Part shown: piece after piece, positions 34,001 to 50,013 of the stretch
How positions within the stretch are numbered: the stretch's first letter is position 1
Layout: each line of letters opens with the position of its first letter
Virus record (IMG/VR): IMGVR_UViG_3300028591_000095
Location: 1-64,000 of that record
DNA from: a virus
Taxonomy: Duplodnaviria > Caudoviricetes
Reading direction: 5' to 3' (one strand)
DNA length: 64,000 nucleotides
Made by a program: the position numbers and the translations under genes
The notes under the pieces: model-generated
Database searches by the model: none
Seen by the model: only the letters and a program-made list of their open reading frames with translations
Told to the model about the DNA's origin: nothing

Positions 34001-37000
34001 TCATACTCCTTTCTCATTTAATGTGATTTTTATAAGTGAACGGTAATCTATATCATTTATACAACGCTTGATTGTACCATCGTATGTTTCCAGTTCAAGA
34101 TCGAATTCACCAGGGTGAATGTTAGCATATGCATCGTAGAATGTGATATATTTTGGATCATACTCATATGCTTCTTCGTATTGTGCTATAACAGGATAAA
34201 TATGATCATTGTATTTATATCCAAGATTGTACTTAATATCATCACGGTAGTTAGCGGTGAACAACTTGAAATATGGTACGAAGTAATATGATTTGAATGT
34301 ACATGGGAACACTTGCCAGTTGTTAGTATTACTTGTTGATTGTGATTTGAATTGATACATGTGATGAATTGATTTGAATTGATCAGAACCATCACTGTGG
34401 AGTCTACATAAGTAAATATTGTAATCATCTGCCAAAGTATAGTATAATGTACCATTCGCAATTACTAACGTTTCTGGAGCATTTGATGTTGGTAATGATA
34501 CAACTCGAACTCGTTCAAGTGTATTGATATCCAATATCTCAACAACTGCAGAGCCACCCGAAACAGCTTGACCCACGTAGATATAGTTGTCATCTTTACA
34601 CAACGATTGCCAACCAGTACCATATTGAGATTTCACTGAGAATGTTTCAGCGACTCTATCATATACAAGCAGATTGCTATTTGAACTTGTAGAACCTTTG
34701 ATCAGGTATTTATCGGTAGCAATCCAGTCAAAAGCATCCCAATCGCTAGTATACGCAAAACTGTCACTAATATTTTGGGTTTTTGTATTGAATATAACAA
34801 AACCTCCCTTTGTTGCAACAGCAAACTCTTCTATTGATACCCAGAACATCTTTCCACGTCCGGTAATTGTTGTCGGTAATACCGTAAGTTTTGTAATGTC
34901 TGTAGTATCTGCACGGTTTATTCTGATTATATATTTCTGATCAGTCTTCGCAGTGATGTATACGTAGTTACTATCAACAAGGAAGCCTCCAATATATGTG
35001 GTATTACCTGAGTATGGTAATCCAAGTACAGAGTTAGGAAGTTCAAATAAAACAGAATATTCTTTTGATATCAATGTGAACTTTATCAAACGAACAGTTG
35101 TACCATTGACAGCCATCAGTGTATACAATTCACGATTGTATTCCAATGTATTTGAATAGTAGATGTCAGTGATTGGTGTGGTTCCATCCAACAACGTTGG
35201 ATCACTGTAATCATTATATCTATTAGGAACACGCTCATTCTCACCGACAATCATTAGATCAATATGATCCAGATGTTTGTATGGGCGAATTGGAGGATGT
35301 AATCCACATGCTTTTGTGTTAGTTGATGTAGTATAAATGTTGTAAATATTATTCTGCACTGTGGGTACATTGAACATATCGAATGTGCATTTGAATTCAA
35401 TTCTATCACGTGTTTCTTTGGTTGTCACTGTGTATTGAAGTGATGGATCACATGTAATATCAAGAGTACATGAATCTACTAAATATGGTGTATCGATGGT
35501 AGTTTTCATTGTTAATGTATTCGGAATAACTGATATAGTTATACTATCATACATATCATCTTCATCGTTGAGATATATTGTATATGGGTTAATTAATCCT
35601 GTGTCGTTTTGTAGATAAGCTGTACCGTATTGATTTAATGTATCAACTGTAATCTCAGTAATCTCTTCATTGTATTCCCATTCATGTGTCTCTTTATTGT
35701 ATGACTTAATACCTTCGATATCTTCACATAAAATTCGGACTGCTAATACTTCAACAGCTGTAATCTTTACAGATGTAACTCCAACAGGTTCTTGACTTCC
35801 TCCAGCAATAAGAGCTGTATCAGTTAAGTAATAGCGTTCATCAGGGATGTAACCAGATGGTTTATATGAGCTATCAGTAAGAACGTATCCGCTACCACCA
35901 GAACCAGCTTGATCATCATCACCACTTCCATCAGGTACAGTACCGGAACCGCCATACCAGCCTCCACCACCAGAACCACCGTATCCGCTATCTTTGTAAA
36001 GTCCAAGACCACCATAACCAAAACCACCACGAGCACGTTCATCACCTGATTGAGGTGATTCAGTTTGGGTACCTGGTCCTGCATTACTACCATATCCACT
36101 ACCACCATCTTTTGTGGTACCTGATAAACCTCCACCTTGACCACCTTTACCATCACCACCACCAACACCAGCACCTCCACCAGCGACAATGATTCGTGAT
36201 AATAAAGATTGTTCAAGGTTTGCGATAACTATTTCAACTACAGTCTTTTCTGATACCGGATCTCCAGCATTTAATCCACCATATCCATATGTAGATATAG
36301 AACCTTCAATGAATTGATCAGTTACAAGATCATACATACCAATAGCATCATCTGAATCACGTTTGCATGGTAACAGATATCTTTTATAAATACCATTCTC
36401 ATACATTTTGAATGAATACAGTTTTAATCTACCAATATCAGTTTGGGGATTTCCACTTGTATTGTTATTAAATATAAACATTGAAAATTTGCCATCAACT
36501 TGTTCAGTTGCTTCTGATTGAATACTTCCAATGAGTATACCTTGACTGTCATACCATGATGCAGTTGTACCGTCTACAATAATCGTGATGTCTTGACCAT
36601 ATACTAATCCAGATCCTTCTGTTTCATATGTATTACAACAGAAAACGGGAATATCTCTACTATCGAACCTCATGAAGAAATTGAGATTACTATCATGAGG
36701 ACCAATTCTACTACCGAATATCGATTGATATGCTTGATAGGTATTTTGTGTTAAACAACATTTACACTCAACGATCGTATTCGCTTTATGCGTGTAACCA
36801 GTATTGATGTATCCTCGATTATTCTCCTTATTCTCAATATATGTTAACTCTGTATATCCATCAGGTATAGATTTTTCGATTGTAATTTGTTCTGGTCTGA
36901 TAAGTCTGATATCACTACCACCACCAGATGCACTCCAACAACCTGAACGAGATGAATAGTTATCAACGTTTCCTCCGTTGTATGTTGCTGTAGGAAATCT

Positions 37001-39319
37001 GGTGTTCCAATAAGTTCCTGCAATGGAGATATCAGCAGTTACAGCATGTGCAGGACTACCTCCAGCAACCATAAATACATTAGTATCAGTGTCAAGAGTT
37101 AATGTTCCTGCGGCATAACCACCTTCTGATTCACGACCATATCTACGAGCATTACCCCAACCACCATTACATTCCAGACGGTATGTTCCCGGTGGTAATG
37201 AAACTTGCTCCATTCTACCGGTGCATATCGAGTATACAACATCATTCCGTCGTATATTATTTACTTTTCTTGCAATGATGATTTTAGCTGTATCTGAACG
37301 AGCAGATTCCATGAATATGTTAGAGAAGTAATAATCACTCATGGTGTATCCATCCATATAACCAGATGGTTTATATGAGTTGGTAGTGAGAACGTATCCA
37401 CTACCACCTCCACCGCAACCTATTGTGTGTTCTCGGTTGCTGACACCCATAGTACAGTAACCACCATACCAGCCTCCACCACCACCGGGTTCTCCTTCAG
37501 CACCACAATTACCGGTACCATAGTTGTGTTTCAATAAACCATCCTGACCACGACCGAATCTCCAACCATTCGTTTGGGTAGGATAACGGTATCTATTGAA
37601 ACCACTATCTGAATTTGGATAACCACCAAACACTCCACCACCGGAAGCCATGTCACTCATTTTGGCTATTGTGGCTTCCCAGAATTGTCCACCTCCGCCA
37701 CCACCAGCGACAATGATTCGTGAATTTAACGACGGTGATGACTTAGTATTGTATGTGAATGTACGTGTTGGAATTGTTGTGTAGTTGTATGGTGAGAATG
37801 GTAAATTTCCAGGACCGTAACTGTTACCCGCTGTACAGTATATCATTAATCCAAGACTAATGTCTGTGGTGACACCGCTATTAACAGTAAACTCAATAAA
37901 GTTTACTGTAGTATTACGAAGATCACCCATGGTATAGTCTAAGACATAAGTGTCATTTGGCAAGTCATCGATGCTGTAAGTTTTTCTGATGGTTGTGGTT
38001 GTACCATCATCATATCCGAATTTGATAGAGAATCCTGATGGAAGTGCGATAGTATTTCTGAAATGTACACAAGCAGGTCCACCATAACTTTTTGAATCAG
38101 GAACATTACAAGTTTCAAGCAATGGGAATCTATATGTAGTATTATCGCTTGCGGTACCTGATATAGTATATTCACCATTGACAACTGCGAAGGTGACATC
38201 ATTAACAGTTGCTGTTGTATCTACAGGACATGGTAACTTGTTCAGTCTCTGTTCATACTCAATAAATGTGTCACCTATGATATCATAAAAACCAGAGATC
38301 GAACTTCCGTTTTCAGTCTTAACAACTGGAACGAATTTATGTACATCAGAATCATCTTCTCTGATAGTAAGATAATAAATTCTCGCATTGGCAAGATCCT
38401 CCCAGAAAGGAGTACCAGTACCACTCGCACGATGAGTTCCAAACACACCTAACGATGGTACTGGATATGAACTGTTATCAAAATCAACTGGTGCGAATGT
38501 AGTATGATCATCATTTGATGAATGGTATATTGTATCAGAACCATTTTCATGCCAAGTAGCTTCAGTCTCACCCATATTGACAATAACACGAGTGTTGTAT
38601 AACGCAGGGTCGGTACTGCCTGTTGTAATGTCAACCTGTTGGGAACCTGGACAATTGAATCTATATTTCCAAGTACCATTATTGCGTATCTGGAATGAAT
38701 ATGTAGCCCAATAGTCAGATGCTTGTGTACCCATACCAGTATTATCACAACCAACTAAACTCTGATATGAGTTTCCACCAGCGGAATCGTCAGCATAGAA
38801 TTCAAATTCTAGTGTTGTAAGATGATTAACATGATAACCTGTATCAAGACCTTGACTTGATGCACGCAGATATTCCATTGCTGAATATTGTGCTGGTAAT
38901 GTCACCTCATGTTCAATATATTCATCTGGATCTATATTCAGACGAACATCGGAAGCTCCACCACCGCCAGGTCCACCATAATATGATGCCGTGTTTGCTA
39001 AACCACCGCGGCCGCCACCGTTATATCCACCGGGTGCGAATGTGACTTTATCCGAGTTAGTATTTGCACCATCACCACCGACAACAGCATACATTGTGGT
39101 GGTTTCTGCAAGATCCAGTATACCCATTGACAAACCTCCGTAGGGTTTCTCTTGATCACGACCTGAATCACTTGAATACATACGACCACCACGAGCGCCA
39201 TAACACATCATCAGATATGTATCAGGTTGAAGTGTAAACTCTTCAGGTTCTCCTGTGTATTGGAAATCGTGTATTACTTCGAATAATTGATCTTGGTAAA
39301 CATACAAAGTTCTACTCAT
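34001..39319 (-). CDS. Large adhesin: two glycine-rich (Gly_rich_2 / ALK-LTK-like) domains with inserted LamG-like domains and a beta-rich C-terminus
   Basis: Two copies of GGxSDxR...SRIIVAGGG...GGGGWYGG...GGSGY; inserts begin YSAMEYL...LDTGY and YTELTYI...INTGY and end FVP...GFYD and LLP...GMYD. Confidence 0.72.
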   Translation of the reverse strand: MSRTLYVYQDQLFEVIHDFQYTGEPEEFTLQPDTYLMMCYGARGGRMYSSDSGRDQEKPYGGLSMGILDLAETTTMYAVVGGDGANTNSDKVTFAPGGYNGGGRGGLANTASYYGGPGGGGASDVRLNIDPDEYIEHEVTLPAQYSAMEYLRASSQGLDTGYHVNHLTTLEFEFYADDSAGGNSYQSLVGCDNTGMGTQASDYWATYSFQIRNNGTWKYRFNCPGSQQVDITTGSTDPALYNTRVIVNMGETEATWHENGSDTIYHSSNDDHTTFAPVDFDNSSYPVPSLGVFGTHRASGTGTPFWEDLANARIYYLTIREDDSDVHKFVPVVKTENGSSISGFYDIIGDTFIEYEQRLNKLPCPVDTTATVNDVTFAVVNGEYTISGTASDNTTYRFPLLETCNVPDSKSYGGPACVHFRNTIALPSGFSIKFGYDDGTTTTIRKTYSIDDLPNDTYVLDYTMGDLRNTTVNFIEFTVNSGVTTDISLGLMIYCTAGNSYGPGNLPFSPYNYTTIPTRTFTYNTKSSPSLNSRIIVAGGGGGGQFWEATIAKMSDMASGGGVFGGYPNSDSGFNRYRYPTQTNGWRFGRGQDGLLKHNYGTGNCGAEGEPGGGGGWYGGYCTMGVSNREHTIGCGGGGSGYVLTTNSYKPSGYMDGYTMSDYYFSNIFMESARSDTAKIIIARKVNNIRRNDVVYSICTGRMEQVSLPPGTYRLECNGGWGNARRYGRESEGGYAAGTLTLDTDTNVFMVAGGSPAHAVTADISIAGTYWNTRFPTATYNGGNVDNYSSRSGCWSASGGGSDIRLIRPEQITIEKSIPDGYTELTYIENKENNRGYINTGYTHKANTIVECKCCLTQNTYQAYQSIFGSRIGPHDSNLNFFMRFDSRDIPVFCCNTYETEGSGLVYGQDITIIVDGTTASWYDSQGILIGSIQSEATEQVDGKFSMFIFNNNTSGNPQTDIGRLKLYSFKMYENGIYKRYLLPCKRDSDDAIGMYDLVTDQFIEGSISTYGYGGLNAGDPVSEKTVVEIVIANLEQSLLSRIIVAGGGAGVGGGDGKGGQGGGLSGTTKDGGSGYGSNAGPGTQTESPQSGDERARGGFGYGGLGLYKDSGYGGSGGGGWYGGSGTVPDGSGDDDQAGSGGSGYVLTDSSYKPSGYIPDERYYLTDTALIAGGSQEPVGVTSVKITAVEVLAVRILCEDIEGIKSYNKETHEWEYNEEITEITVDTLNQYGTAYLQNDTGLINPYTIYLNDEDDMYDSITISVIPNTLTMKTTIDTPYLVDSCTLDITCDPSLQYTVTTKETRDRIEFKCTFDMFNVPTVQNNIYNIYTTSTNTKACGLHPPIRPYKHLDHIDLMIVGENERVPNRYNDYSDPTLLDGTTPITDIYYSNTLEYNRELYTLMAVNGTTVRLIKFTLISKEYSVLFELPNSVLGLPYSGNTTYIGGFLVDSNYVYITAKTDQKYIIRINRADTTDITKLTVLPTTITGRGKMFWVSIEEFAVATKGGFVIFNTKTQNISDSFAYTSDWDAFDWIATDKYLIKGSTSSNSNLLVYDRVAETFSVKSQYGTGWQSLCKDDNYIYVGQAVSGGSAVVEILDINTLERVRVVSLPTSNAPETLVIANGTLYYTLADDYNIYLCRLHSDGSDQFKSIHHMYQFKSQSTSNTNNWQVFPCTFKSYYFVPYFKLFTANYRDDIKYNLGYKYNDHIYPVIAQYEEAYEYDPKYITFYDAYANIHPGEFDLELETYDGTIKRCINDIDYRSLIKITLNEKGV

Positions 39320-39351: not shown

Positions 39352-39753
39352 TTATGTGAGATTATAAGGATCATCTGCTGAGTTGTAAATAGCAACCAGA
39401 GTATCCTGTGGAAGACTGTTGACTTCTTCCTGAGTAGGATCTGAACCATATGTGACAATAGATGATTCAAATCCAACGAGTTTGAGTTTGACACTACCCT
39501 CAGTACCATCACCACGATAGTCAGTTTCAAAATCAACTGCAGTATATGTCATCAATACACGGTATACAGTTTCATTATATACTACAAGGGTATTACGTTC
39601 GTAAGTTGTACCAGGTGTATAGTCAACGATAGTGGCATTGCCTCCACCTCCACCAAGTTCAAGTTGTTTAAGCTTCTCGGTAATACTTGCAAGTTTTAAA
39701 GTATTAGCTTCAATCTGTTCCTGCAAGTCAGTAAATATTTTAGGCAGTTCCAT
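39352..39753 (-). CDS. Small virion protein: coiled coil plus CBM5/12-like module
   Basis: N-terminal coiled coil, GGGGG linker, then DYTPGTTYERNTLVVYNETVYRV. Confidence 0.5.
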   Translation of the reverse strand: MELPKIFTDLQEQIEANTLKLASITEKLKQLELGGGGGNATIVDYTPGTTYERNTLVVYNETVYRVLMTYTAVDFETDYRGDGTEGSVKLKLVGFESSIVTYGSDPTQEEVNSLPQDTLVAIYNSADDPYNLT

Positions 39754-40327: not shown

Positions 40328-40371
40328 TTCGATATACATATCATTAGAATGAATAGGACAGAGTCCATTCA
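40328..40371 (+). promoter_or_regulatory. Putative early promoter plus 5' hairpin
   Basis: TTCGATATACATATCATT then TGAAT-A-GGAC-AGA-GTCC-ATTCA. Confidence 0.55.
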
Positions 40372-40396
40372 AATAAAAATCAAAGGAGAAATCACA

Positions 40397-40834
40397 ATGG
40401 CTGGTATTTTTAGCATGGGTGCTTGGATAGCATATGGTAATTCAGCACTCAACAATCAGAAGGGTAAATCATCAAATCTTCAGGATGCATTCCGTGCAGA
40501 CCTCAAGAAGAACATCGCAAAGGCTGGATACCCTTCAAAGGACGAAATCGGAATCATCGATGAGATTAATGACTTCTCATTCGATAACACTCTCAAGCAG
40601 ATGCCTCAGCTCGTAGCTGACTACATGAGAGACGAGAACAGAAAGTTCAACCTCCCTGCACCTGATGGCAGCTGTACAACAGCATCAATCGAAATCGTTC
40701 ACAAAGAGTCTCAGACCAAGAGCGGTGTTGCAAAGCTCGGTGGTGGCAAAGATCCTATTCCGTGGGAGAGCACAATCAAAGAGCATGACGAGTATTCACT
40801 CTCTAACAACAGAGACGCATTCAAAGTTAAGTAA
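40397..40834 (+). CDS. Probably highly expressed small protein, possibly HU/TF1-like DNA-binding
   Basis: ATG 40397 behind AAAGGAG; codon bias (CTC, AAG, GAC, AAC) like the capsid gene; C-terminal beta-arm-like segment. Confidence 0.5.
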   Translation: MAGIFSMGAWIAYGNSALNNQKGKSSNLQDAFRADLKKNIAKAGYPSKDEIGIIDEINDFSFDNTLKQMPQLVADYMRDENRKFNLPAPDGSCTTASIEIVHKESQTKSGVAKLGGGKDPIPWESTIKEHDEYSLSNNRDAFKVK

Positions 40835-40908: not shown

Positions 40909-43900
40909 TTAACCACGTATCAAACTCTTAATGACATCTGGAACTTCTTCATCATACATATCGGATTCATCCGCTGTAGTTTCAGTTGTACCAGTTGTCT
41001 TAATAGCGTCCAGTTTAGCAAGTATCTTGTTGAGTATTTTTTCTGTTCGAGGAGATCTAGTTGTGAATTCTGACTTAAGTAGATAATTCAACAGATCAGT
41101 TCTACTAAGATCACTTGTGTCATTGTTGATACCTGAACCTTGGATAGTGTAGTTGTTTACTGTATATGAACCCTCTGAACCGTAATTGAGCATCTGATCT
41201 ATTACGTTATCACTCAGAGGTGGAATATCATTAGCTACGGTTGTTACATCTCCGGAACCGTAGATACCGCCAGGAACGAAGAATCCTGAATCTGTAGTAT
41301 TATAATCGAAATCACCACATGCACCAATCATTGAATTAAGTTGTGCGAGAGTCTTTTCCGTACCTGAAGCAAGAACTTCAACTGGACGGTTCTTGTTCTT
41401 GATAGTCTTATCGTAAGACATACCAAGCGTTGTCCATTTAAGATTATGACCGTTTCTCTTGTACCTTCCATCAGTGTATACTGATCCATGTGTGTAGTAA
41501 TGTTTAAGATCATCATTTGACATTACCTTGTTAGTATCCAGCCATTTCTGACCATATGCAGGTTTGTAGAATTTGGTACTTGTATCTGTACCCACCCAGT
41601 TATTTATCTTTGCATCTGATGCGGAGTTAACCGGATTAACAGTTGTTGTCGTATATTTATGATCGTTCTTTTTATTGATTGCAGTTGCTGAATCTGTAAA
41701 GTCCGAACTATGACCCCAACCACAGTAAGGACGACCATCTGAAGCACGACCTCCAGCATATACAAATACCCATGAACCCCATGTAGTAACCTTTGTATAT
41801 GATTTGTTGTTTTGTAATTTACACGATAACTTACTACTGTCTGAATGATCGAGATATAGATATACATCTCCATGTCCCTTAGTGAGTAATTGACTATTAG
41901 ACCATGTAGTTCCACCATTATGGTTCTTTTTCATAGTCTTATAAAGAGTCTGAACCTCAGTGTTTGTAGCCCATACTCGAGTGTCTGTATTGCTAGCTTC
42001 AGCATCACCCTGTTCAAGTTCTTCATCATAATCATAATCTCCAAAATCACTATAGCTTGAAGTAGAGTATGAAGAACTAAGTGCATCTGCACTATTGTTG
42101 ATGTTAGTCTGTACTGTGCTGTACATGTTCTTGTAGTAATCAGGTAAGTAATCAGCATACTCGCCAAGTATACTACTTAAATCAAATCCAGACACAGTAC
42201 CACCACCGCCAGCTACAGTTGTACTTCCACCACCAGCTGCATAACCACTGGACTGACCATTATCAAGCATCCAGTTATATGCATCAACGGCTGTACGCAT
42301 ATGCTTCGCAAGCTGTGCTGATGTGTACCAGTTCTCAGGCACGAGTGCATTTGCAACGTAATGACCCATTGACTCAGCGATATCAGTTTCCGCATATGGA
42401 CCCCATCTATCATTTGCACCAAGTTTAGGAGCATGACCAAGAGCTTGAGTAATTCCAGCTTTATAATCGTTGAAGTTAACATTCTTTGCACGTGAGAATG
42501 TAGAATCTGCATCGAAGTATTGCTTCTTGATATATGGAAGCTGATCAGCTAATGTTGAACCATACTTAGTTTCATGACCACCACGATATGCATTCTTCGA
42601 ATCTGGAATCCAGTTCATCAAACCGAACGCAGCTTGACCGTTCTTATCAAATGTAACTGCTGTAAGTGATTTCTCACCGGTAAGTTTCTGAGCGGCATCT
42701 TCATGGATACCAATAGCAGCAATCATAGCGGTTTGTGCCGCAGTAAGTCCTGCTTTCTTAGCTTGATTCCAGTAACCACCAGATGTGAGTTTTGCTGGAT
42801 ATGGAGACCAGAATACCGGAGCAGCTTTCATTGCAGCTGACAACTGGATCTTACCCTGTTTACCTCCTGCAAACTCACCTGTCGAACCACTGGCATCACC
42901 AGCGTCAGCACCTTCTTCAAGTGCACTACCAGATTTACCACCGACATATCGAAGAATGGTTGTTGGTATACCACCACCACCTTCTCCGGCGTATCCAGGA
43001 CCCATAGTCCATAACAGATAATTCTTCCAATTCTCATCTCTATCAAGATATGCTTTAGCTGCACCAGCACCGAGTTGTCTAAGTCTCTGACCACCAGCAT
43101 CTTGGTCACCTGCATCGTAACCATATGCGTTCGGTTGATCACCTTTGATATACAAACCGACGTGTTTCGGAGTTGTGAGAATGTCGCCAGGTTTGAGTTT
43201 CTCAGCACTATATGGGATGAACTCCCAGTCATTTGAAAGAGATCCATCAGAATTATAAATCAAATCATTCTTAGTTTTACCAGTAAGATCATGGGTTGTC
43301 CATCTTCTGGTACTACCATTCATAGTTCCTTTGAATGAGTAACCCATATAGTTCATTGCAGCACTGATCATGCCTGAACAGTCTGGATGTAATTCAGGAA
43401 GTTCTACACCACTACGAGTTGTGATAGGACCATGGTTTGCATTCGAATATATTGCTCCAAGTTTCTTAGCAGCACCTTCCCATACTTGAGCAGCAGCCTC
43501 GTAAAGATCTGATGTTTGTCCGGTCATGTTACCACCACCACCGCCACCACCAGAACTTCTTCCACCACCACCAGCTGTAGCAGCAGATGCCTGAAGAGCT
43601 TCACCGAGTTTCTTAATAGCGATTGATGCTTTCTTGGATTTAACATAATCACTATCATCTGATTCTACCAAATATTTGAATCCACCGGATACTATAGGAT
43701 TACCAGCTTCGTCATGAACGATATTACCAGCAGCGTCTTTCTGATAAACAACGTATGGTTCGTAATATCCCTTACTGTTAGCGACCATAGTATCATAACG
43801 ATTCCGAAGGTCTTCACTGATCTTATCGGATACAACCATTGAAATGTATTTATTTCTTACAGTCGATTTACCATTCCATTCATCAGATATACGCTTTTCG

Positions 43901-46900
43901 TATTCCTCTAAAGTTTCATCATCTCTTATAGGATTATCTGTACGATAGAGATCCATCGCAGTCATAACCTTAGTCTGATAGTCTTCCTTAGAGAGTTCTT
44001 CCATTGCTGTCTTAGCGACACTAGCTTCAGAGTATTCTTGTTTCTTCTCATTAGCCATGTTAGTAATATCAGATGATGCATCTGTATTAAATATATTACT
44101 GAAAAGATTTGTCATTCCCTTCAGTGTTTCCATAGCTGATTGAGTTGCTGTAGATAATGAATCCATTGTTATCATATCACCGTTACCATAGATACCCATC
44201 AACGATGAACCTGCAATATCATTTGCATTTCTACGCTGAATCTTACCCGTTAACGGATTAGATACATATACACCACCGTACTTGTCCGTACCAATTGCAT
44301 TCATGTAATGAACGTTTCCAGTACGTGTTCCATATGCTGATCCACTGCCTACGAGAGTTATTGGATTATTAGGTGAAGCCTTCTTGAGTGAACGCATTGT
44401 TACTCCACCTACGGTTGTATTCATACCCAGAGCATTTGATGCAGCTAAATATCCGCTAACAGATGTTCCTCTCGATGGGTCATACGCACCATTTGATGTC
44501 ATAGAACCTGCAAGCTTTCTAGCATTGATGTTAGAACCAGTTCTACGATTATATGCTTCAGCAAGTGCTACTGGACCACAACCACGACGTGCCATGTTAA
44601 GATAGTTTCCGTATGATGTTTGAGCATCACCACTACCAATAATCTCAGCTGTAGCCTCATCATTAATATTCGAATAAGGTATATCACCTTCAGAATAATG
44701 ATACGGACCATTAGCTATGACAGTTGTATCAACAACTTTAGTGGTTTTGGTTGAAGTCGGAACAGTTTCATTTGTAGCAGCTTTTAATGATGCACCAACA
44801 GTTGCTGCTGATACAAGTGCAAGCTTTGTATTCTTTATAGCAGACAAACCTTTTTCCTCAGTTGATTGACCATCTGCAAGAAGTTGATCGGTATCTCCCA
44901 TCATCTTCTTACCGAGTTCAGCAATCTTGTTATTCTCGTCAACCCATGGGAGTAATGCGAATGCTTCACCGATTGCATGGATTATCTTACCGAGACCACC
45001 AACGATACCACCAGAACTACTCTTAGCAGCGCCATATTGTGCAGTAGCCAAACCAGTTTGAATTTCAGCTTCATCAGCAATCTTGTTTGTGTTAGAAACC
45101 ATCTCAAGTGTACCATGTTTGAACATCGATTTCTGCATCTCGATATCCTCTTCACGATTCTTGTCAGCTTTCTCTTCAGCAAGTTTTCTAGCATCGTCTT
45201 CTTGTTTATAACGATCACCAAGGAACTCAATGAGTCTATCAGTATCATTATTAACTGCTTCTCCATCGACTGTTGTATTTTGAGCCTCAGTAGCAACTGC
45301 AGTTCTCGAAAGTGTTTCAGCATCTTCAAGCGACATATCACCAGTCATGATGCGCTCGATGATATTACGAGACTTATCAGGATCATTAGGATAAATCATT
45401 TGAGCTAAACGTTTAGCTTCTCTTTCCTTCTCAGCATGAGTAAGTTCAACAGGAATAGTTGATTTAACTTTACCTTGTTCATAGAATGAACCATCAAGTT
45501 TAGCATCAAGATAAGCATTCATCTTCTCTGAACCATGAATATCATATGCTGAATAACGAGGTGTACCATCTTCATCAATACTGCTGGCACCATATGGAAG
45601 TGTGGTTGTAGTATTTTGTTTATTAGAATTGGTATTTGATCCTGTACCGGCTGTAGTATTAGAAGAATTAGATTCATTACTTTCTTCTTCAGGATCATTA
45701 TCCGGAATACCCATACGTTGCATATACTTAAAACGTTTCTTTCTACTGCCTGGATGAACGATGAACGCCAGAGCTTCAGCAAATTTGTTGATTATCTTCT
45801 GAATGAATCCCATAAATTTGGTTAATGGTTTTGCAATCATCGATACAATTCCACCAACAGCCTTAGCAATACCAGCAATAATTGGTGACAATACTTTGAG
45901 GATTGTATTTACAGATCCAGCTATGACTTCAAGTAATGGTCCGAGTGCAGTGAGTGTGTCAGCGATTGGTCCTGTAATTGATGCAACGAGCTCTTGTAAT
46001 GTACCTGTGAGTATCTTAAGAACTGGCTTTACAGTTTTAACGAGTTCCTTGAATACACTGTTGAGAGGTTTAAGTATAGCAGTGAGAGTTTGTTTGATTA
46101 ATTGCATAATAGCTTTAGCACCACTCATACTAGCAATGATTTGCATAATCATTCCTGAGATATTCATGATTGCACCTATAGCACCACCAAACATCTTACC
46201 AAGACCACCAAGAAGTTTACTACCGTAGCTTTCTTGCTTACCATCAGCTGCAGCATTTGTCATTGTTGCCGTTCGATGTTCATCGTCAGCACTTGTTGCA
46301 GCTGCAGAACTATTCTGCATACTACCAACATCAACAACGGTTGCTTGTAATTCATTAGAATGTTTAACATCTGCAGTTTGAGCTGATGTATCTCGAGCAG
46401 CTTCAGCTTCGTTTCCTTTGACAGTTTCTTCCTTGAGTGAATCAACTGCATCAACGATTCGAGTTGTTTGTTCTTCTTGCTTCTGTTCAGCTTGCTGTTG
46501 AGTATCTTCAGCGACAGTAGTTTGTTCAGTTCTGGCAGGTGCATTCCAGTCACCATAACCACCATCTGCAACAGGATTTATTACGACTTGAGATTGTCCA
46601 GGAGCTGACCAATCTGTTCCATCTGCAACACCAGGTTTCATTTCGATAGGTTCAGTCTTTTCTTCTTTCTTAGAAGATTCACTAGAAGTTTCTTCACCAC
46701 CATTTTTCTCAACTTCAATCAATTCATGAAGTTGATCACGTATCTCTGTAAGAACTGAGGTTTGTTGACCCTTGAGCATTTCCTCCATTGCACGCTGTTC
46801 AGCGAGTCCTGGATTCTGTGCTTCCTCTTTAGAACGCATTCTCTCACGAGTCTTGTCGAATGATGACATGAATCCCTTACCGAATGAAGTGTTTCTGAAT

Positions 46901-49900
46901 TTATCTATCTGACGTTTAAAGAAGTCTCCATTATTCCACCAATCGGAAATCTTACCAGCAAAGTCTTTGAGTTTATTAAAGACACCCTTACCGAAATTTT
47001 TAAGTTTTTCACCTACGAACTTGAAAGCACCTTTGATTTTACCAGTAATAAATTTTCCTATTGACTTAACTTTATTGATTACAGCAGTACCAACTTTCTT
47101 AGCAATATCTATAATCGGTTTACCTATTTCTTTGAGTTTCGGAAGAATGATTTCTCTACCGATAGCGGTTATACTTTTATAGACATCTGATGCACCAGAA
47201 CCAAAACTCTTGATACCTTCTACTGTACCAATAGCACGTTTCTTGAATCGGTTAACCATGAACGTCACAATTGGTGAAAGGAATTTCTTTGCTTTACCAA
47301 CTACTTTTCCTACAAGAACTGAAATACCTGTAATCAATGGAGCAAAGAAGTTTTTCAACATTCCTTTTCCACCAGATAACAAACGACCCAGCAATCCAGT
47401 ACCAGATGCTTTCTTAGCACTACGCTCGAGCATTCCAGATACTGATGTTCTAAGACGGGCTTTCAGTTTCTGATCCTTGATACGAGAGATCTCCATCATG
47501 ATAGCTTGTCTGTCAGCAGTACCATCACCATCTTCAAGTGCACTCTCCATCAATGACAATACGAGATTCATCTGAGCTTTGTCTTCTTCAGATATTTCTT
47601 CTCTATTACCATATGCTCTGGCTTTATCAAGTGACTTCTGTAAAGAGTTATCAATGAAATTGTCAGTTCTGTCAATAACCGTAGATCCAGCTTCTCTAAT
47701 TTTATCCTTTGCCATTCCAAAAAGTTGATCTCCGGTTCTATGCATAAATGAATTTATAGCTCCTGATATTCTACCAGATCCGTACAATCCAACAACTGAC
47801 GAACTTCCAACAGAACCGATTGGACGTTTGTGAATTCTACCATCGATTGGATTTGATATTATAACATTACCATTTCCATCAGTACCAATGACATTCATAA
47901 AATGATTACTGCCTGGCATTGTACCAAAATCATCACCAGAACCAAGAACTGTGATTGGATTTCCAGGTGTTGCAGTACGAAGAGACATGTTGCTAACCTT
48001 ACCAGCAACCAATGGTTGACCGTACATGTTAGATGCTTTAATAAAGTCTGAAACGTTCATACCGTTTGTTGGACTATATAAACCTCTACGTGCTAAAGCT
48101 TCAGCGAGTGCAACAGGTCCACAACCATGCTGTGCTATTCCGAGATAGTTTCCATAAGATGTCTGATTGAATCCAGAACCATGACCACGGTATTGTTCTG
48201 TAAGTTGTTCAAGCTTTTCTTGCAACTGGCTTATCTCTGCAGCATTGTCGGATGTTAAAGAATCACGAAGATTTCGAGCTCGATCAAAGATCGATGAATC
48301 ATTTCCACCATGTTGATGCTTGAGTTGATATATTTTTTCTCTGAGCTCTTTGATCTCATCAGCGAGTGCTTCTTTCTCATAGAGAGCTTTGATCTCAGTA
48401 ATACCAGCTTCTTTTACATCACTATCGGTTACAACACCTGCCAATGATGTGAGTGGAGATCCAGTGCTTGTATACTTCTTACGACGATCACGATCCTCTT
48501 TATATTTTCTATTGACAGCATTTACAAATTCACGACCACCAGAACCAACTGCAATACGTTGTAATACTTTAGTTACAGCCATTGACCAGTTGACACCGTG
48601 TTTAGGAGAACTTGAACCTATGATCTCAGCTGTCATTGAAATAACATTTGTGTCGAGATCTTTAAGTTCCTTTACAGTGAGACTATTTTTTCCACTTGTA
48701 TTGAGATTCTGAACATATACAGCTTGCAATACTCTTTGAATCATTTGTACATCTGTATTAGATATATCATCTGTCTTTGATTCATAAAGATCCTGCATTG
48801 CAGTTCTACTTAAATCAGAATTCCAATCACGGAAATTTTCATTGTTGAGTTTACCCCAGTTCTCATCTTTGTATTGCTTACGGTTTGCGGTTTGATCTTC
48901 ATCCCATAACCGTTGTTGATAAGAATTCAGGGTGCTTGTACCCATTGACAAACTACCAGATTTGTCAACATTATAATTTATACCAGTAACACCTCTGGCA
49001 ATTATACGAAGATATTCCGGAATGGTTTTGATGATAGTCGTCTTTACGAAGCCATCAAATGCAACAGGCTTTTCATTATATGTATTGGCTACTTCAGATC
49101 CCCAATTCTGATTTTTAGGACCTCTACGAAGATCACCGAATAATACTTTAAAAGGACCGCTGGAGATCATATTTTCCAAACCACTTTGAACAGCTTCTCC
49201 AACTTTATCATTCAATGATTTTAAAGTTGAATTAATTGATTCACCGCCGAGAATATCAAGTTTCTTAGAACCAAGAGTTTTCTCGAGAATTGATCTAACA
49301 TAGTCTTCAGGTTTGCCTAAGAAATCTGTGATCTTTGCATTCTTTCTATCTTCATCGTTACCAAAAGACATAAGAGTGCTAGCAAGACCTGCGATACCAC
49401 CACCTTGTTCTTTGCTATAGTTATATATACCACCGAGAGACAGTTTACCATTAGAATCGTATAAACCCCTTTTTTCTTCACTCTCAGTTTTAAGAGTATA
49501 TACATTAGCAAATGCATCGAGCTTCTTAGATATTCCTATGAGTGTTGAATTGATATTATTGACTGATGCAAGTAATTCAGAACTACGCTGATTCAATGTT
49601 GTTATTATTTCAGCAGTAGACGCTAAACGACTCTCATTATGCTTAGCTGCAATGGAGTACATTGCATTTGTTTGACGTTTGCTGATTTTATCCATCTCAT
49701 CTTTATCTAAAACATGAGACGAAGGTTCATCATCCTCGTTATCATCGAACCCAGCATCAAATCCTGGATCAAATTCATCGTCTACATCGCTTTCTTGTTC
49801 TTTCTGATAGAACCAGTCACGAATATTTCTGAAATTAATACTACGCTTCAGACTTCTAAGAGTCTCAATCGTAGTTTTAGATGAACCCATTACTTCAGTA

Positions 49901-50013
49901 CGAAGTTCATTAGCGTCATTAACCAATGCTATCGAATTGCTGAAGTAATCTTTACCATAATCAGCGGCGGCATCTTTGAGTAACTTGAGACTCTGAGACA
50001 ATAAGTTTGGCAT
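40909..50013 (-). CDS. Giant tape-measure / tail-associated lysin with two C39-like peptidase domains, an NlpC/P60 domain and a phage tail lysozyme domain
   Basis: 3034 aa; amphipathic tape-measure repeats; two copies of Q...GCGPVALAEA...H(F/Y)MNxIG...SNP; PDCSG...PGDIL...HVG; AMIAAIGIHE...FGLMNW...LADQLPYI. Confidence 0.8.
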   Translation of the reverse strand: MPNLLSQSLKLLKDAAADYGKDYFSNSIALVNDANELRTEVMGSSKTTIETLRSLKRSINFRNIRDWFYQKEQESDVDDEFDPGFDAGFDDNEDDEPSSHVLDKDEMDKISKRQTNAMYSIAAKHNESRLASTAEIITTLNQRSSELLASVNNINSTLIGISKKLDAFANVYTLKTESEEKRGLYDSNGKLSLGGIYNYSKEQGGGIAGLASTLMSFGNDEDRKNAKITDFLGKPEDYVRSILEKTLGSKKLDILGGESINSTLKSLNDKVGEAVQSGLENMISSGPFKVLFGDLRRGPKNQNWGSEVANTYNEKPVAFDGFVKTTIIKTIPEYLRIIARGVTGINYNVDKSGSLSMGTSTLNSYQQRLWDEDQTANRKQYKDENWGKLNNENFRDWNSDLSRTAMQDLYESKTDDISNTDVQMIQRVLQAVYVQNLNTSGKNSLTVKELKDLDTNVISMTAEIIGSSSPKHGVNWSMAVTKVLQRIAVGSGGREFVNAVNRKYKEDRDRRKKYTSTGSPLTSLAGVVTDSDVKEAGITEIKALYEKEALADEIKELREKIYQLKHQHGGNDSSIFDRARNLRDSLTSDNAAEISQLQEKLEQLTEQYRGHGSGFNQTSYGNYLGIAQHGCGPVALAEALARRGLYSPTNGMNVSDFIKASNMYGQPLVAGKVSNMSLRTATPGNPITVLGSGDDFGTMPGSNHFMNVIGTDGNGNVIISNPIDGRIHKRPIGSVGSSSVVGLYGSGRISGAINSFMHRTGDQLFGMAKDKIREAGSTVIDRTDNFIDNSLQKSLDKARAYGNREEISEEDKAQMNLVLSLMESALEDGDGTADRQAIMMEISRIKDQKLKARLRTSVSGMLERSAKKASGTGLLGRLLSGGKGMLKNFFAPLITGISVLVGKVVGKAKKFLSPIVTFMVNRFKKRAIGTVEGIKSFGSGASDVYKSITAIGREIILPKLKEIGKPIIDIAKKVGTAVINKVKSIGKFITGKIKGAFKFVGEKLKNFGKGVFNKLKDFAGKISDWWNNGDFFKRQIDKFRNTSFGKGFMSSFDKTRERMRSKEEAQNPGLAEQRAMEEMLKGQQTSVLTEIRDQLHELIEVEKNGGEETSSESSKKEEKTEPIEMKPGVADGTDWSAPGQSQVVINPVADGGYGDWNAPARTEQTTVAEDTQQQAEQKQEEQTTRIVDAVDSLKEETVKGNEAEAARDTSAQTADVKHSNELQATVVDVGSMQNSSAAATSADDEHRTATMTNAAADGKQESYGSKLLGGLGKMFGGAIGAIMNISGMIMQIIASMSGAKAIMQLIKQTLTAILKPLNSVFKELVKTVKPVLKILTGTLQELVASITGPIADTLTALGPLLEVIAGSVNTILKVLSPIIAGIAKAVGGIVSMIAKPLTKFMGFIQKIINKFAEALAFIVHPGSRKKRFKYMQRMGIPDNDPEEESNESNSSNTTAGTGSNTNSNKQNTTTTLPYGASSIDEDGTPRYSAYDIHGSEKMNAYLDAKLDGSFYEQGKVKSTIPVELTHAEKEREAKRLAQMIYPNDPDKSRNIIERIMTGDMSLEDAETLSRTAVATEAQNTTVDGEAVNNDTDRLIEFLGDRYKQEDDARKLAEEKADKNREEDIEMQKSMFKHGTLEMVSNTNKIADEAEIQTGLATAQYGAAKSSSGGIVGGLGKIIHAIGEAFALLPWVDENNKIAELGKKMMGDTDQLLADGQSTEEKGLSAIKNTKLALVSAATVGASLKAATNETVPTSTKTTKVVDTTVIANGPYHYSEGDIPYSNINDEATAEIIGSGDAQTSYGNYLNMARRGCGPVALAEAYNRRTGSNINARKLAGSMTSNGAYDPSRGTSVSGYLAASNALGMNTTVGGVTMRSLKKASPNNPITLVGSGSAYGTRTGNVHYMNAIGTDKYGGVYVSNPLTGKIQRRNANDIAGSSLMGIYGNGDMITMDSLSTATQSAMETLKGMTNLFSNIFNTDASSDITNMANEKKQEYSEASVAKTAMEELSKEDYQTKVMTAMDLYRTDNPIRDDETLEEYEKRISDEWNGKSTVRNKYISMVVSDKISEDLRNRYDTMVANSKGYYEPYVVYQKDAAGNIVHDEAGNPIVSGGFKYLVESDDSDYVKSKKASIAIKKLGEALQASAATAGGGGRSSGGGGGGGNMTGQTSDLYEAAAQVWEGAAKKLGAIYSNANHGPITTRSGVELPELHPDCSGMISAAMNYMGYSFKGTMNGSTRRWTTHDLTGKTKNDLIYNSDGSLSNDWEFIPYSAEKLKPGDILTTPKHVGLYIKGDQPNAYGYDAGDQDAGGQRLRQLGAGAAKAYLDRDENWKNYLLWTMGPGYAGEGGGGIPTTILRYVGGKSGSALEEGADAGDASGSTGEFAGGKQGKIQLSAAMKAAPVFWSPYPAKLTSGGYWNQAKKAGLTAAQTAMIAAIGIHEDAAQKLTGEKSLTAVTFDKNGQAAFGLMNWIPDSKNAYRGGHETKYGSTLADQLPYIKKQYFDADSTFSRAKNVNFNDYKAGITQALGHAPKLGANDRWGPYAETDIAESMGHYVANALVPENWYTSAQLAKHMRTAVDAYNWMLDNGQSSGYAAGGGSTTVAGGGGTVSGFDLSSILGEYADYLPDYYKNMYSTVQTNINNSADALSSSYSTSSYSDFGDYDYDEELEQGDAEASNTDTRVWATNTEVQTLYKTMKKNHNGGTTWSNSQLLTKGHGDVYLYLDHSDSSKLSCKLQNNKSYTKVTTWGSWVFVYAGGRASDGRPYCGWGHSSDFTDSATAINKKNDHKYTTTTVNPVNSASDAKINNWVGTDTSTKFYKPAYGQKWLDTNKVMSNDDLKHYYTHGSVYTDGRYKRNGHNLKWTTLGMSYDKTIKNKNRPVEVLASGTEKTLAQLNSMIGACGDFDYNTTDSGFFVPGGIYGSGDVTTVANDIPPLSDNVIDQMLNYGSEGSYTVNNYTIQGSGINNDTSDLSRTDLLNYLLKSEFTTRSPRTEKILNKILAKLDAIKTTGTTETTADESDMYDEEVPDVIKSLIRG

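Follow-up and report, generated by a model that had tools for sequence, protein, structure and literature searches.

Embedded C39-like peptidase domains and G-S-G-D tags suggest a candidate self-processing giant tail protein in tailed phages

In the polyproteins of RNA viruses, a papain-like protease embedded in the precursor cuts its own borders as well as other domain borders, acting in cis and in trans. C39 enzymes cleave after GG, GA or GS, and the M23 domain of the lactococcal phage tail protein Tal is the suspected enzyme of that protein's own cleavage. Tal of phage TP901-1, a tail protein that carries wall hydrolases, is cleaved in the glycine-rich sequence NGGGNSGGGD, and in both TP901-1 and Tuc2009 the cut falls in a Gly-rich motif with G-D at its end and parts the structural from the lytic portion (PMC11409707). 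The tape measures of lambda (gpH, cleaved to H*) and T5 (pb2, cleaved after R1127) are cut near the C-terminus during tail assembly, between the ruler and the muralytic or tip part, and the relevant passages of PMC10038345 name no enzyme for either cleavage. Here we describe a gene for a 3034-amino-acid (aa) protein, P0001, in a 64,000-nucleotide stretch of DNA from an uncultured tailed jumbo phage (the window) that comprises positions 1 to 64,000 of the IMG/VR virus record IMGVR_UViG_3300028591_000095 (166,640 bp; CheckV completeness estimate 62%). P0001 carries two C39-like cysteine peptidase domains and several copies of a short G-S-G-D-type motif, referred to below as the tag. Judging from the fold, its conservation and the placement of the tags, we somewhat favor the view that P0001 is a self-processing virion polyprotein cut by its own C39-like domains.

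The likeness to the RNA-virus systems lies in a protease situated within its own precursor, and it is drawn here with cleavage in P0001 only proposed; unlike those polyproteins, P0001 is a structural tail protein of a DNA phage, and a sequence relationship is absent. Tal differs in that it has no papain-fold domain and a single site instead of a set bracketing a protease. The lambda and T5 tape measures do not have the protease embedded in them, and the T5 site follows Arg rather than G-S-G-D. Processing of polyproteins by an embedded papain-like protease is already known, and what would be new is the setting in a structural protein of a tailed phage. The initial annotation of the window knew of no description of such a maturation system, and a full-text literature search likewise turned up no account of a phage tape measure or tail lysin with a protease inside it.

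The giant gene, the two peptidase domains and the tags are located as follows (positions in the window, residues in P0001):
40909..50013, minus strand: giant virion protein gene P0001, a tape-measure-like precursor; single open reading frame (ORF), 3034 aa
47749..48201, minus strand: C39-like cysteine peptidase copy 1, aa 605-755; profile match E 1e-82
48121..48123, minus strand: codon of Cys631, which with His704, Asn721 and a Gln upstream of the Cys makes up the catalytic set of copy 1
48172..48189, minus strand: N-flank motif of copy 1, RGHGSG, aa 609-614; the weakest site
47773..47790, minus strand: C-flank motif of copy 1, GLYGSG, aa 742-747; GLYG(S/N)G follows copy 1 in all two-copy relatives
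44158..44661, minus strand: C39-like cysteine peptidase copy 2, aa 1785-1952; papain fold in the AlphaFold2 model
44578..44580, minus strand: codon of Cys1812, which with His1902, Asn1919 and a Gln upstream of the Cys makes up the catalytic set of copy 2
44626..44643, minus strand: N-flank motif of copy 2, IIGSGD, aa 1791-1796; two residues ahead of the invariant Gln
44176..44196, minus strand: C-flank motif of copy 2, GIYGNGD, aa 1940-1946
41248..41268, minus strand: third site, GIYGSGD, aa 2916-2922; 113-119 aa ahead of the C-terminus in peptidase-free surroundings

The two domains had been described from the sequence as paralogous, with intact catalytic positions, and both statements were borne out: the copies share 46% identity across 155 columns (E 2e-44), copy 2 having a 17-residue insert that is missing from copy 1, and Gln, Cys, His and Asn were found where they had been placed in both. 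An exhaustive HMMER search of 1.84 billion representatives (E <= 0.001) with the domain profile matched 148 clusters, about 143 of which carry the domain, each one a giant phage protein (most have 2000-3700 aa) or a truncated fragment of such a protein, and neither a stand-alone enzyme nor a cellular protein with the domain was present among the ~143 domain-bearing clusters. About 60 relatives of P0001 are near full length (2100-3600 aa), on contigs that reach 295 kb, and the N-terminus of P0001 (MPNLL...) agrees with that of its homologues. Close relatives have two copies of the domain; in more distant ones a lone copy precedes M23, Amidase_2 and/or Phage_lysozyme2 domains. Family-wide, Cys, His and Asn are retained in 156 of 156 complete domain copies, drawn from about 145 protein clusters, and Gln in 143 of 157, and in alignment A1 the Q, GCGP, H and NP positions are all invariant.

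The C39-like label (MEROPS clan CA; Pfam PF03412 and PF13529) given to these domains in the initial annotation holds at the level of the fold, while the sequence stays below curated thresholds. Pfam yields only a sub-threshold match of copy 1 to C39_2 (PF13529; E 0.23, 12.5 bits against a cut-off of 24) and none of copy 2, and NCBIfam and PHROGs match neither domain. A PDB sequence search with the domain profile returned solely the tectonin-like lectin 6gxs, which was discarded as a spurious repeat match. By contrast with the sequence, AlphaFold2, given an alignment of 25 sequences, models copy 2 confidently (predicted local distance difference test score (pLDDT) 86.9) as a papain fold whose best solved match is ComA PEP (5xe8; Z score 14.8, root-mean-square deviation (rmsd) 2.4 Å, 126 residues). 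Further matches are the pseudomurein isopeptidase PeiR (Z 14.6), PCAT1 (Z 14.1), staphopain C (Z 13.5) and LahT150 (Z 13.3), and Foldseek returned C39 and papain-like proteases at E 4.5e-6 to 1e-4. The C39 leader peptidases of PCAT/AMS ABC transporters among the structural matches (ComA PEP 5xe8/3k8u, PCAT1 and LahT150 6mpz) span Z 13.3-14.8 and rmsd 2.1-3.0 Å over 123-126 residues. They share the order Gln, Cys, His with the P0001 domains and process proteins after small G-G, G-A and G-S motifs; unlike them, the P0001 domain has an insignificant sequence match, has Asn in place of Asp and lies in a giant virion protein instead of an ABC transporter, and the putative (Y/F)-G-S-G-D site comes without the amphipathic leader helix of C39 substrates. 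The invariant Gln superposes on the oxyanion Gln of ComA, with the N-flank tag 2-4 residues away, and at the N-flank of the model, residues 1-12 are matched by the pro-segments that papain-family zymogens carry.

The motifs reported around both domains and near the C-terminus lie at the positions assigned to them, and their number is far above shuffle expectation. G[LI]YG[SN]G occurs three times in P0001 against 0.002 expected, a count reached in none of 20,000 shuffles, and G[SN]GD four times against 0.29 expected (P ~1.5e-4, 20,000 shuffles of the protein). Across the 166-kb genome fragment the strict tag is confined to the P0001 ORF. The third site is spanned by the segment VPGGIYGSGDVTTV (aa 2912-2925). 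IGACGD (aa 2896-2901), which had been put forward as a further site, was rejected as a family-wide tag; it is conserved among close relatives only, as (T/G)ACGD[FV]D.

The question of whether such motifs co-occur with C39 domains in homologues is answered by 119 full-length relatives, in which the motif is conserved at three homologous positions. The C-flank is nearly always G(L/I)YGSGD, and the N-flank is usually x(T/I)YGSG(N/D), 2-4 residues ahead of the invariant Gln, the N-border reading G-x-G-(D/N) in about 100 of the 119. A third G-x-G-D, 90-170 residues ahead of the C-terminus, is aligned in about 120 of 125 full-length representatives; in this alignment G, G and D alone are invariant against a mean column identity of 22%. 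Counted over the 119 proteins, GxGD occurs 100 times at the N-flank, 133 times at the C-flank and 121 times in the C-terminal window, with x mostly Ser, then Asn and Ala, while outside these windows it occurs 133 times, at about the chance rate and with random x. The layout found, an embedded protease with a conserved motif marking both its own edges and further domain boundaries, is that of a self-processing polyprotein. Covariation of the middle tag residue between the three sites was tried and had no power, nearly all residues being Ser. Natural gene fission at the tags was also considered and dropped, the short members being contig-end fragments (the start of P0082, for example, is 115 nt away from the end of its contig). 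P0196 (a singleton of 2752 aa), the member that diverges most, keeps Cys, His and Asn and lacks G-S-G-D; it has G[KR]G (9 seen, 3.9 expected) at both flanks, N and C, and again 108 aa ahead of the C-terminus. Protease and tag may, on this hint, co-vary between clades, an anecdote drawn from P0196, which has no database relatives.

The most telling evidence comes from the loci of relatives. In eight of eight loci examined (L002-L009; four from assemblies and four from IMG/VR), a giant domain-bearing gene, g1, is directly followed by a giant gene, g2, that is collinear with it and peptidase-free; an hmmsearch for the peptidase domain in g2 products was empty even at E <= 10. By BLAST, g2 residues 1-1194 align with residues 1-1320 of the domain-bearing protein P0041 and g2 residues 1176-1382 with P0041 residues 1479-1690, and because these segments skip the P0041 peptidase region, the domain is missing from g2 at exactly that point. 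The g2 sequence at this point reads ...SPMDGVYGSGNA..., and the junction segment in relatives is SPMDGVYGSGNAGV. The junction motif MDG(L/I/V)YGSG(D/N) is kept in 17 of 17 g2-type proteins, two of them with the variant MDGLFASGD, and the C-terminal GSGD, 130-160 aa before the end, in 13 of 17. Since the protease-less paralogues keep the tag at the domain insertion point, the tag is, on the strength of the sequences, a short linear motif whose conservation is independent of the peptidase fold. Its persistence in g2 is more in keeping with a site that is recognized or cleaved than with a linker, and a peptidase sitting inside one copy of the tag fits the layout to be expected from insertion of the domain into its own cleavage site, with action that would be both in cis and in trans.

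The g1 genes of these loci (L002:10001-26225 and L003-L009) encode C39-like and M23 domains, and the g2 genes CHAP and/or Phage_lysozyme2. P0001, in turn, is the sole giant gene of its family within the 166-kb record and combines two protease copies with a g2-type lytic module. A gene pair resembling the g1/g2 layout of L002-L009 is found in the AR9-like Staphylococcus jumbo phage vB_SauM-UFV_DC4, in which a ~2000-aa 'tail tape measure protein with M23' adjoins a ~2000-aa 'tail lysozyme' (PMC10638138); the phage of the window instead has one gene with two protease copies. Sequence similarity to the giant-protein family was not detected in cultured phages (50,697 phage records), and AR9 was set aside as a known relative after it gave no match to the domain profile or to PF13529.

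Taken together, we propose that the papain-fold C39-like domains recognize the linear tag (aromatic)-G-(S/N)-G-(D/N) and would cut the precursor there. The tag includes both G-S and S-G. The predicted products would be a helical N-terminal fragment that ends at aa ~612; the two peptidases, each set free as a chain of ~15 kDa; a core resembling a tape measure (aa ~748-1793); a muralytic fragment (aa ~1947-2919) with a CHAP/NlpC-P60 domain, a lysozyme-like domain and one domain of unknown fold; and a C-terminal piece of ~115 residues. The domain's own borders may be cut in cis or between copies and the peptidase-distant sites in trans, probably during tail assembly, as with lambda gpH and T5 pb2. 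That the tag is cut, at which bond and when, and that the embedded domain is the cutting enzyme, are what we infer. For the family as a whole, we regard as evenly poised the broader claim that in tailed jumbo phages of anaerobic Bacillota from gut and rumen a C39-like cassette residing in its own G-S-G-D site excises itself and cuts the tags of its carrier and, in trans, of the protease-less paralogue.

Several observations weigh against self-processing. The GSG that the initial annotation saw ahead of each domain is conserved in relatives at the copy 2 border, whereas at copy 1 the N-flank is merely G-x-G-N-like, degenerate and variable among relatives. A conserved GSG (ITxxGSG) also lies inside the peptidase domain, where cleavage could not be productive. 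As in papain, Asn serves as third catalytic residue, within an invariant N-P, where canonical C39 has Asp. A tblastn search with the domain, the C-terminal third and the paralogue segment against 50,697 phage records found no relatives; the matches were short, wall-binding-like ones to endolysins of Faecalibacterium and Acutalibacter phages. Conservation of the C-flank is partly structural in the model, (L/I)Y being part of the last beta-strand of the domain, with the G-N-G-D of copy 2 running into disorder. In addition, the predicted fold does not discriminate between protein and peptidoglycan as substrate and suits a wall peptidase equally well. PeiR, a pseudomurein endoisopeptidase, scores on a par with ComA (Z 14.6 vs 14.8), and the nearest ESM Atlas clusters are Peptidase_C39_2 domains of Bacillota (template modeling score 0.74-0.76, ~147 residues), several of them fused to SLT or named murein hydrolase. 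These PF13529 endolysin or murein-hydrolase domains, including SLT-C39_2 fusions, occur in wall-degrading phage-related proteins, and the literature counts C39_2 among endolysin catalytic domains. The C-flank strand and the structural matches, together with the fact that P0001 and its relatives string wall hydrolases together (M23, Amidase_2, Phage_lysozyme2 and CHAP), favor a reading that we consider rather unlikely as a full account, namely that the C39-like domains are virion peptidoglycan peptidases acting alongside the CHAP/NlpC-P60 and lysozyme-like domains and that the tags are uncut hinges or caps. A hinge leaves unexplained a five-residue tag that is kept ~115 aa short of the C-terminus, well away from peptidase domains and in unconserved surroundings, as well as the tag at the exact insertion point in the protease-less paralogues. 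It would also be odd for a wall enzyme that copy 1 lies upstream of the entire tape-measure-like part, and PF13529 enzymes are free or of the lysin type, whereas the P0001 domain is never a free lysin among the ~143 domain-bearing clusters and occurs only within giant proteins, bracketed by a tag that recurs elsewhere. A muralytic role, alone or in addition to self-processing, is nonetheless plausible, and a hybrid is possible in which an endopeptidase preferring Gly/Ser cross-bridges cuts wall and tags alike, in line with what has been proposed for M23 of lactococcal Tal.

The persistence of the tag in peptidase-free proteins could also be accounted for if the tags were cleaved or bound by some other factor, be it a protease of the host, a different protease of the phage or an assembly chaperone, with the peptidase engaged in an unrelated job; a passage of PMC10038345 reports, through its reference 36, that tail-protein cleavage in T5 involves the host. 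We judge this improbable, as the tags bracket the peptidase itself and the tag-bearing paralogue adjoins the peptidase-bearing gene in eight of eight loci. Still more improbable in our estimation is that the peptidase is ejected as an effector and, once injected, cleaves proteins of the host in the manner of C39-like interbacterial toxins. The top Foldseek match of copy 2 is indeed a papain-like cysteine protease toxin (9l5u, E 4.5e-6), and the C39-like interbacterial toxins CdiA-CT (8ssk and 8ssm) match the model at Z ~12.5, but an immunity-like partner is not evident and the tags of the carrier protein would be left unexplained; release of the peptidase from its own precursor followed by host targeting would be compatible with the self-processing model. 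A complex prediction for the peptidase core (A1 residues 13-158) with a 50-residue segment holding the C-terminal tag (A2) scored 0.02 against a mark of 0.32, that is, 'no answer', and carries no weight in either direction.

The remaining parts of P0001 are the following:
48202..50013, minus strand: N-terminal part, aa 1-604, mostly helical by its translation
44662..47748, minus strand: tape-measure-like middle, aa 756-1784; hydrophobic helices rich in Gly/Ala, plus an acidic stretch of low complexity
42931..43521, minus strand: CHAP/NlpC-P60-type peptidoglycan peptidase, ~aa 2165-2361, with Cys2212 in PDCSG; from the AlphaFold2 model and structure comparison
42262..42813, minus strand: lysozyme/glucosaminidase-like domain, ~aa 2401-2584; modest support
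40909..41247, minus strand: C-terminal piece, 112 aa plus the stop codon; small IPPL(S/D) motif and conserved extreme C-terminus

The division into an N-terminal helical part, a tape-measure part, a lytic part and a C-terminal tail made in the initial annotation is reasonable, with a tape-measure label that is weakly backed, neighboring genes being without recognizable families. Residues 1-604 have zero matches in Pfam and NCBIfam and are homologous to the N-terminal parts of P0041-type proteins. In the middle part, aa 1267-1422 weakly match phrog_305 (tail length tape measure, E 4.7e-4) and phrog_7334 (E 1.2e-4), and Baculo_PEP_C matches aa 1278-1391; a tape-measure match was not found for P0001 in NCBIfam. 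The label is thus weakly supported, its sole basis being these PHROG matches, the helical hydrophobic composition and the position of the gene.

For the lytic part, an AlphaFold2 model of aa 2165-2650 (pLDDT 69) supports the predicted NlpC/P60 domain at the level of a CHAP/NlpC-P60 fold (Z 7.3-9.3), with the lysozyme-like domain reaching only Z ~6, so that support for the pair is moderate overall. Structure matches of aa 2165-2361 include the endolysin Lys2972 (Z 9.3), NlpC1 (Z 8.4), CwlO (Z 7.9) and LytE (Z 7.4), and VIA rows 1-22 for this segment are nearly all NlpC/P60 or CHAP wall hydrolases (Z 7.2-9.3). The Pfam match to NLPC_P60 (E 0.002) is below the cut-off, and Cys and His are invariant in alignment A4. 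The Z ~6 matches of aa 2401-2584 (pLDDT 55-88) are to the GH73 domain of FlgJ (5dn5), phi29 gp13 (3csq) and a T. maritima glucosaminidase (4qdn). For this segment Pfam was empty and BLAST to the Phage_lysozyme2 region of P0053 was weak; Pfam Phage_lysozyme2 is found at the equivalent position in relatives. In the C-terminal piece, a motif [IV]PP[LIV][DNS] (aa 2930-2937, window ~41180-41205) lies 5-60 residues past the C-terminal GSGD in both types of giant protein and is also present in gene 2 of L002, and the extreme C-terminus of the giant proteins is conserved as ...IP..V..L..G.

Around P0001, no recognizable sheath or tube families were found with Pfam, PHROGs and Atlas features in this 62%-complete record. 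Just downstream, the product of a gene at 34001-39319 (minus strand) is a 1772-aa protein with four ALK/LTK glycine-rich stretches (PF12810, E 2e-62), a domain unusual in a phage structural module, and also matches phrog_1589 and phrog_5811. Between it and the giant gene lies a 133-aa ORF (39352-39753, minus strand) with a weak CBM_5_12 match (E 4.8e-4, below the cut-off), and a 161-aa ORF on the plus strand (40349-40834), without a family match, breaks the minus-strand structural run right after the giant gene. Upstream of the giant genes, a conserved gene of 252-253 aa is syntenic in relatives, its counterpart in the window being the ORF at 50099-50860. Sample names of related contigs suggest rumen and gut assemblies, and residues ~1845-1900 of P0212, the g2 product of locus L003, share 56-60% identity with segments of endolysins from Faecalibacterium and Acutalibacter phages. 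The host is probably a member of the Oscillospiraceae or a Ruminococcus-type Bacillota.

If the self-processing model is true, the C39-like domain would be the first phage-encoded maturation protease of a tail protein and a concrete enzyme for cleavage of tape measures of the lambda/T5 type. The question of tape-measure cleavage becomes directly testable here because the substrate carries both the candidate protease and a simple conserved tag. A small protease with a five-residue site is, moreover, a potential cleavage tool. For the phages themselves, cleavage would account for how proteins of 2000-3700 residues with several globular enzymes are fitted into a tail, and polyprotein maturation, a hallmark of RNA viruses, would reach the structural proteins of tailed DNA phages.

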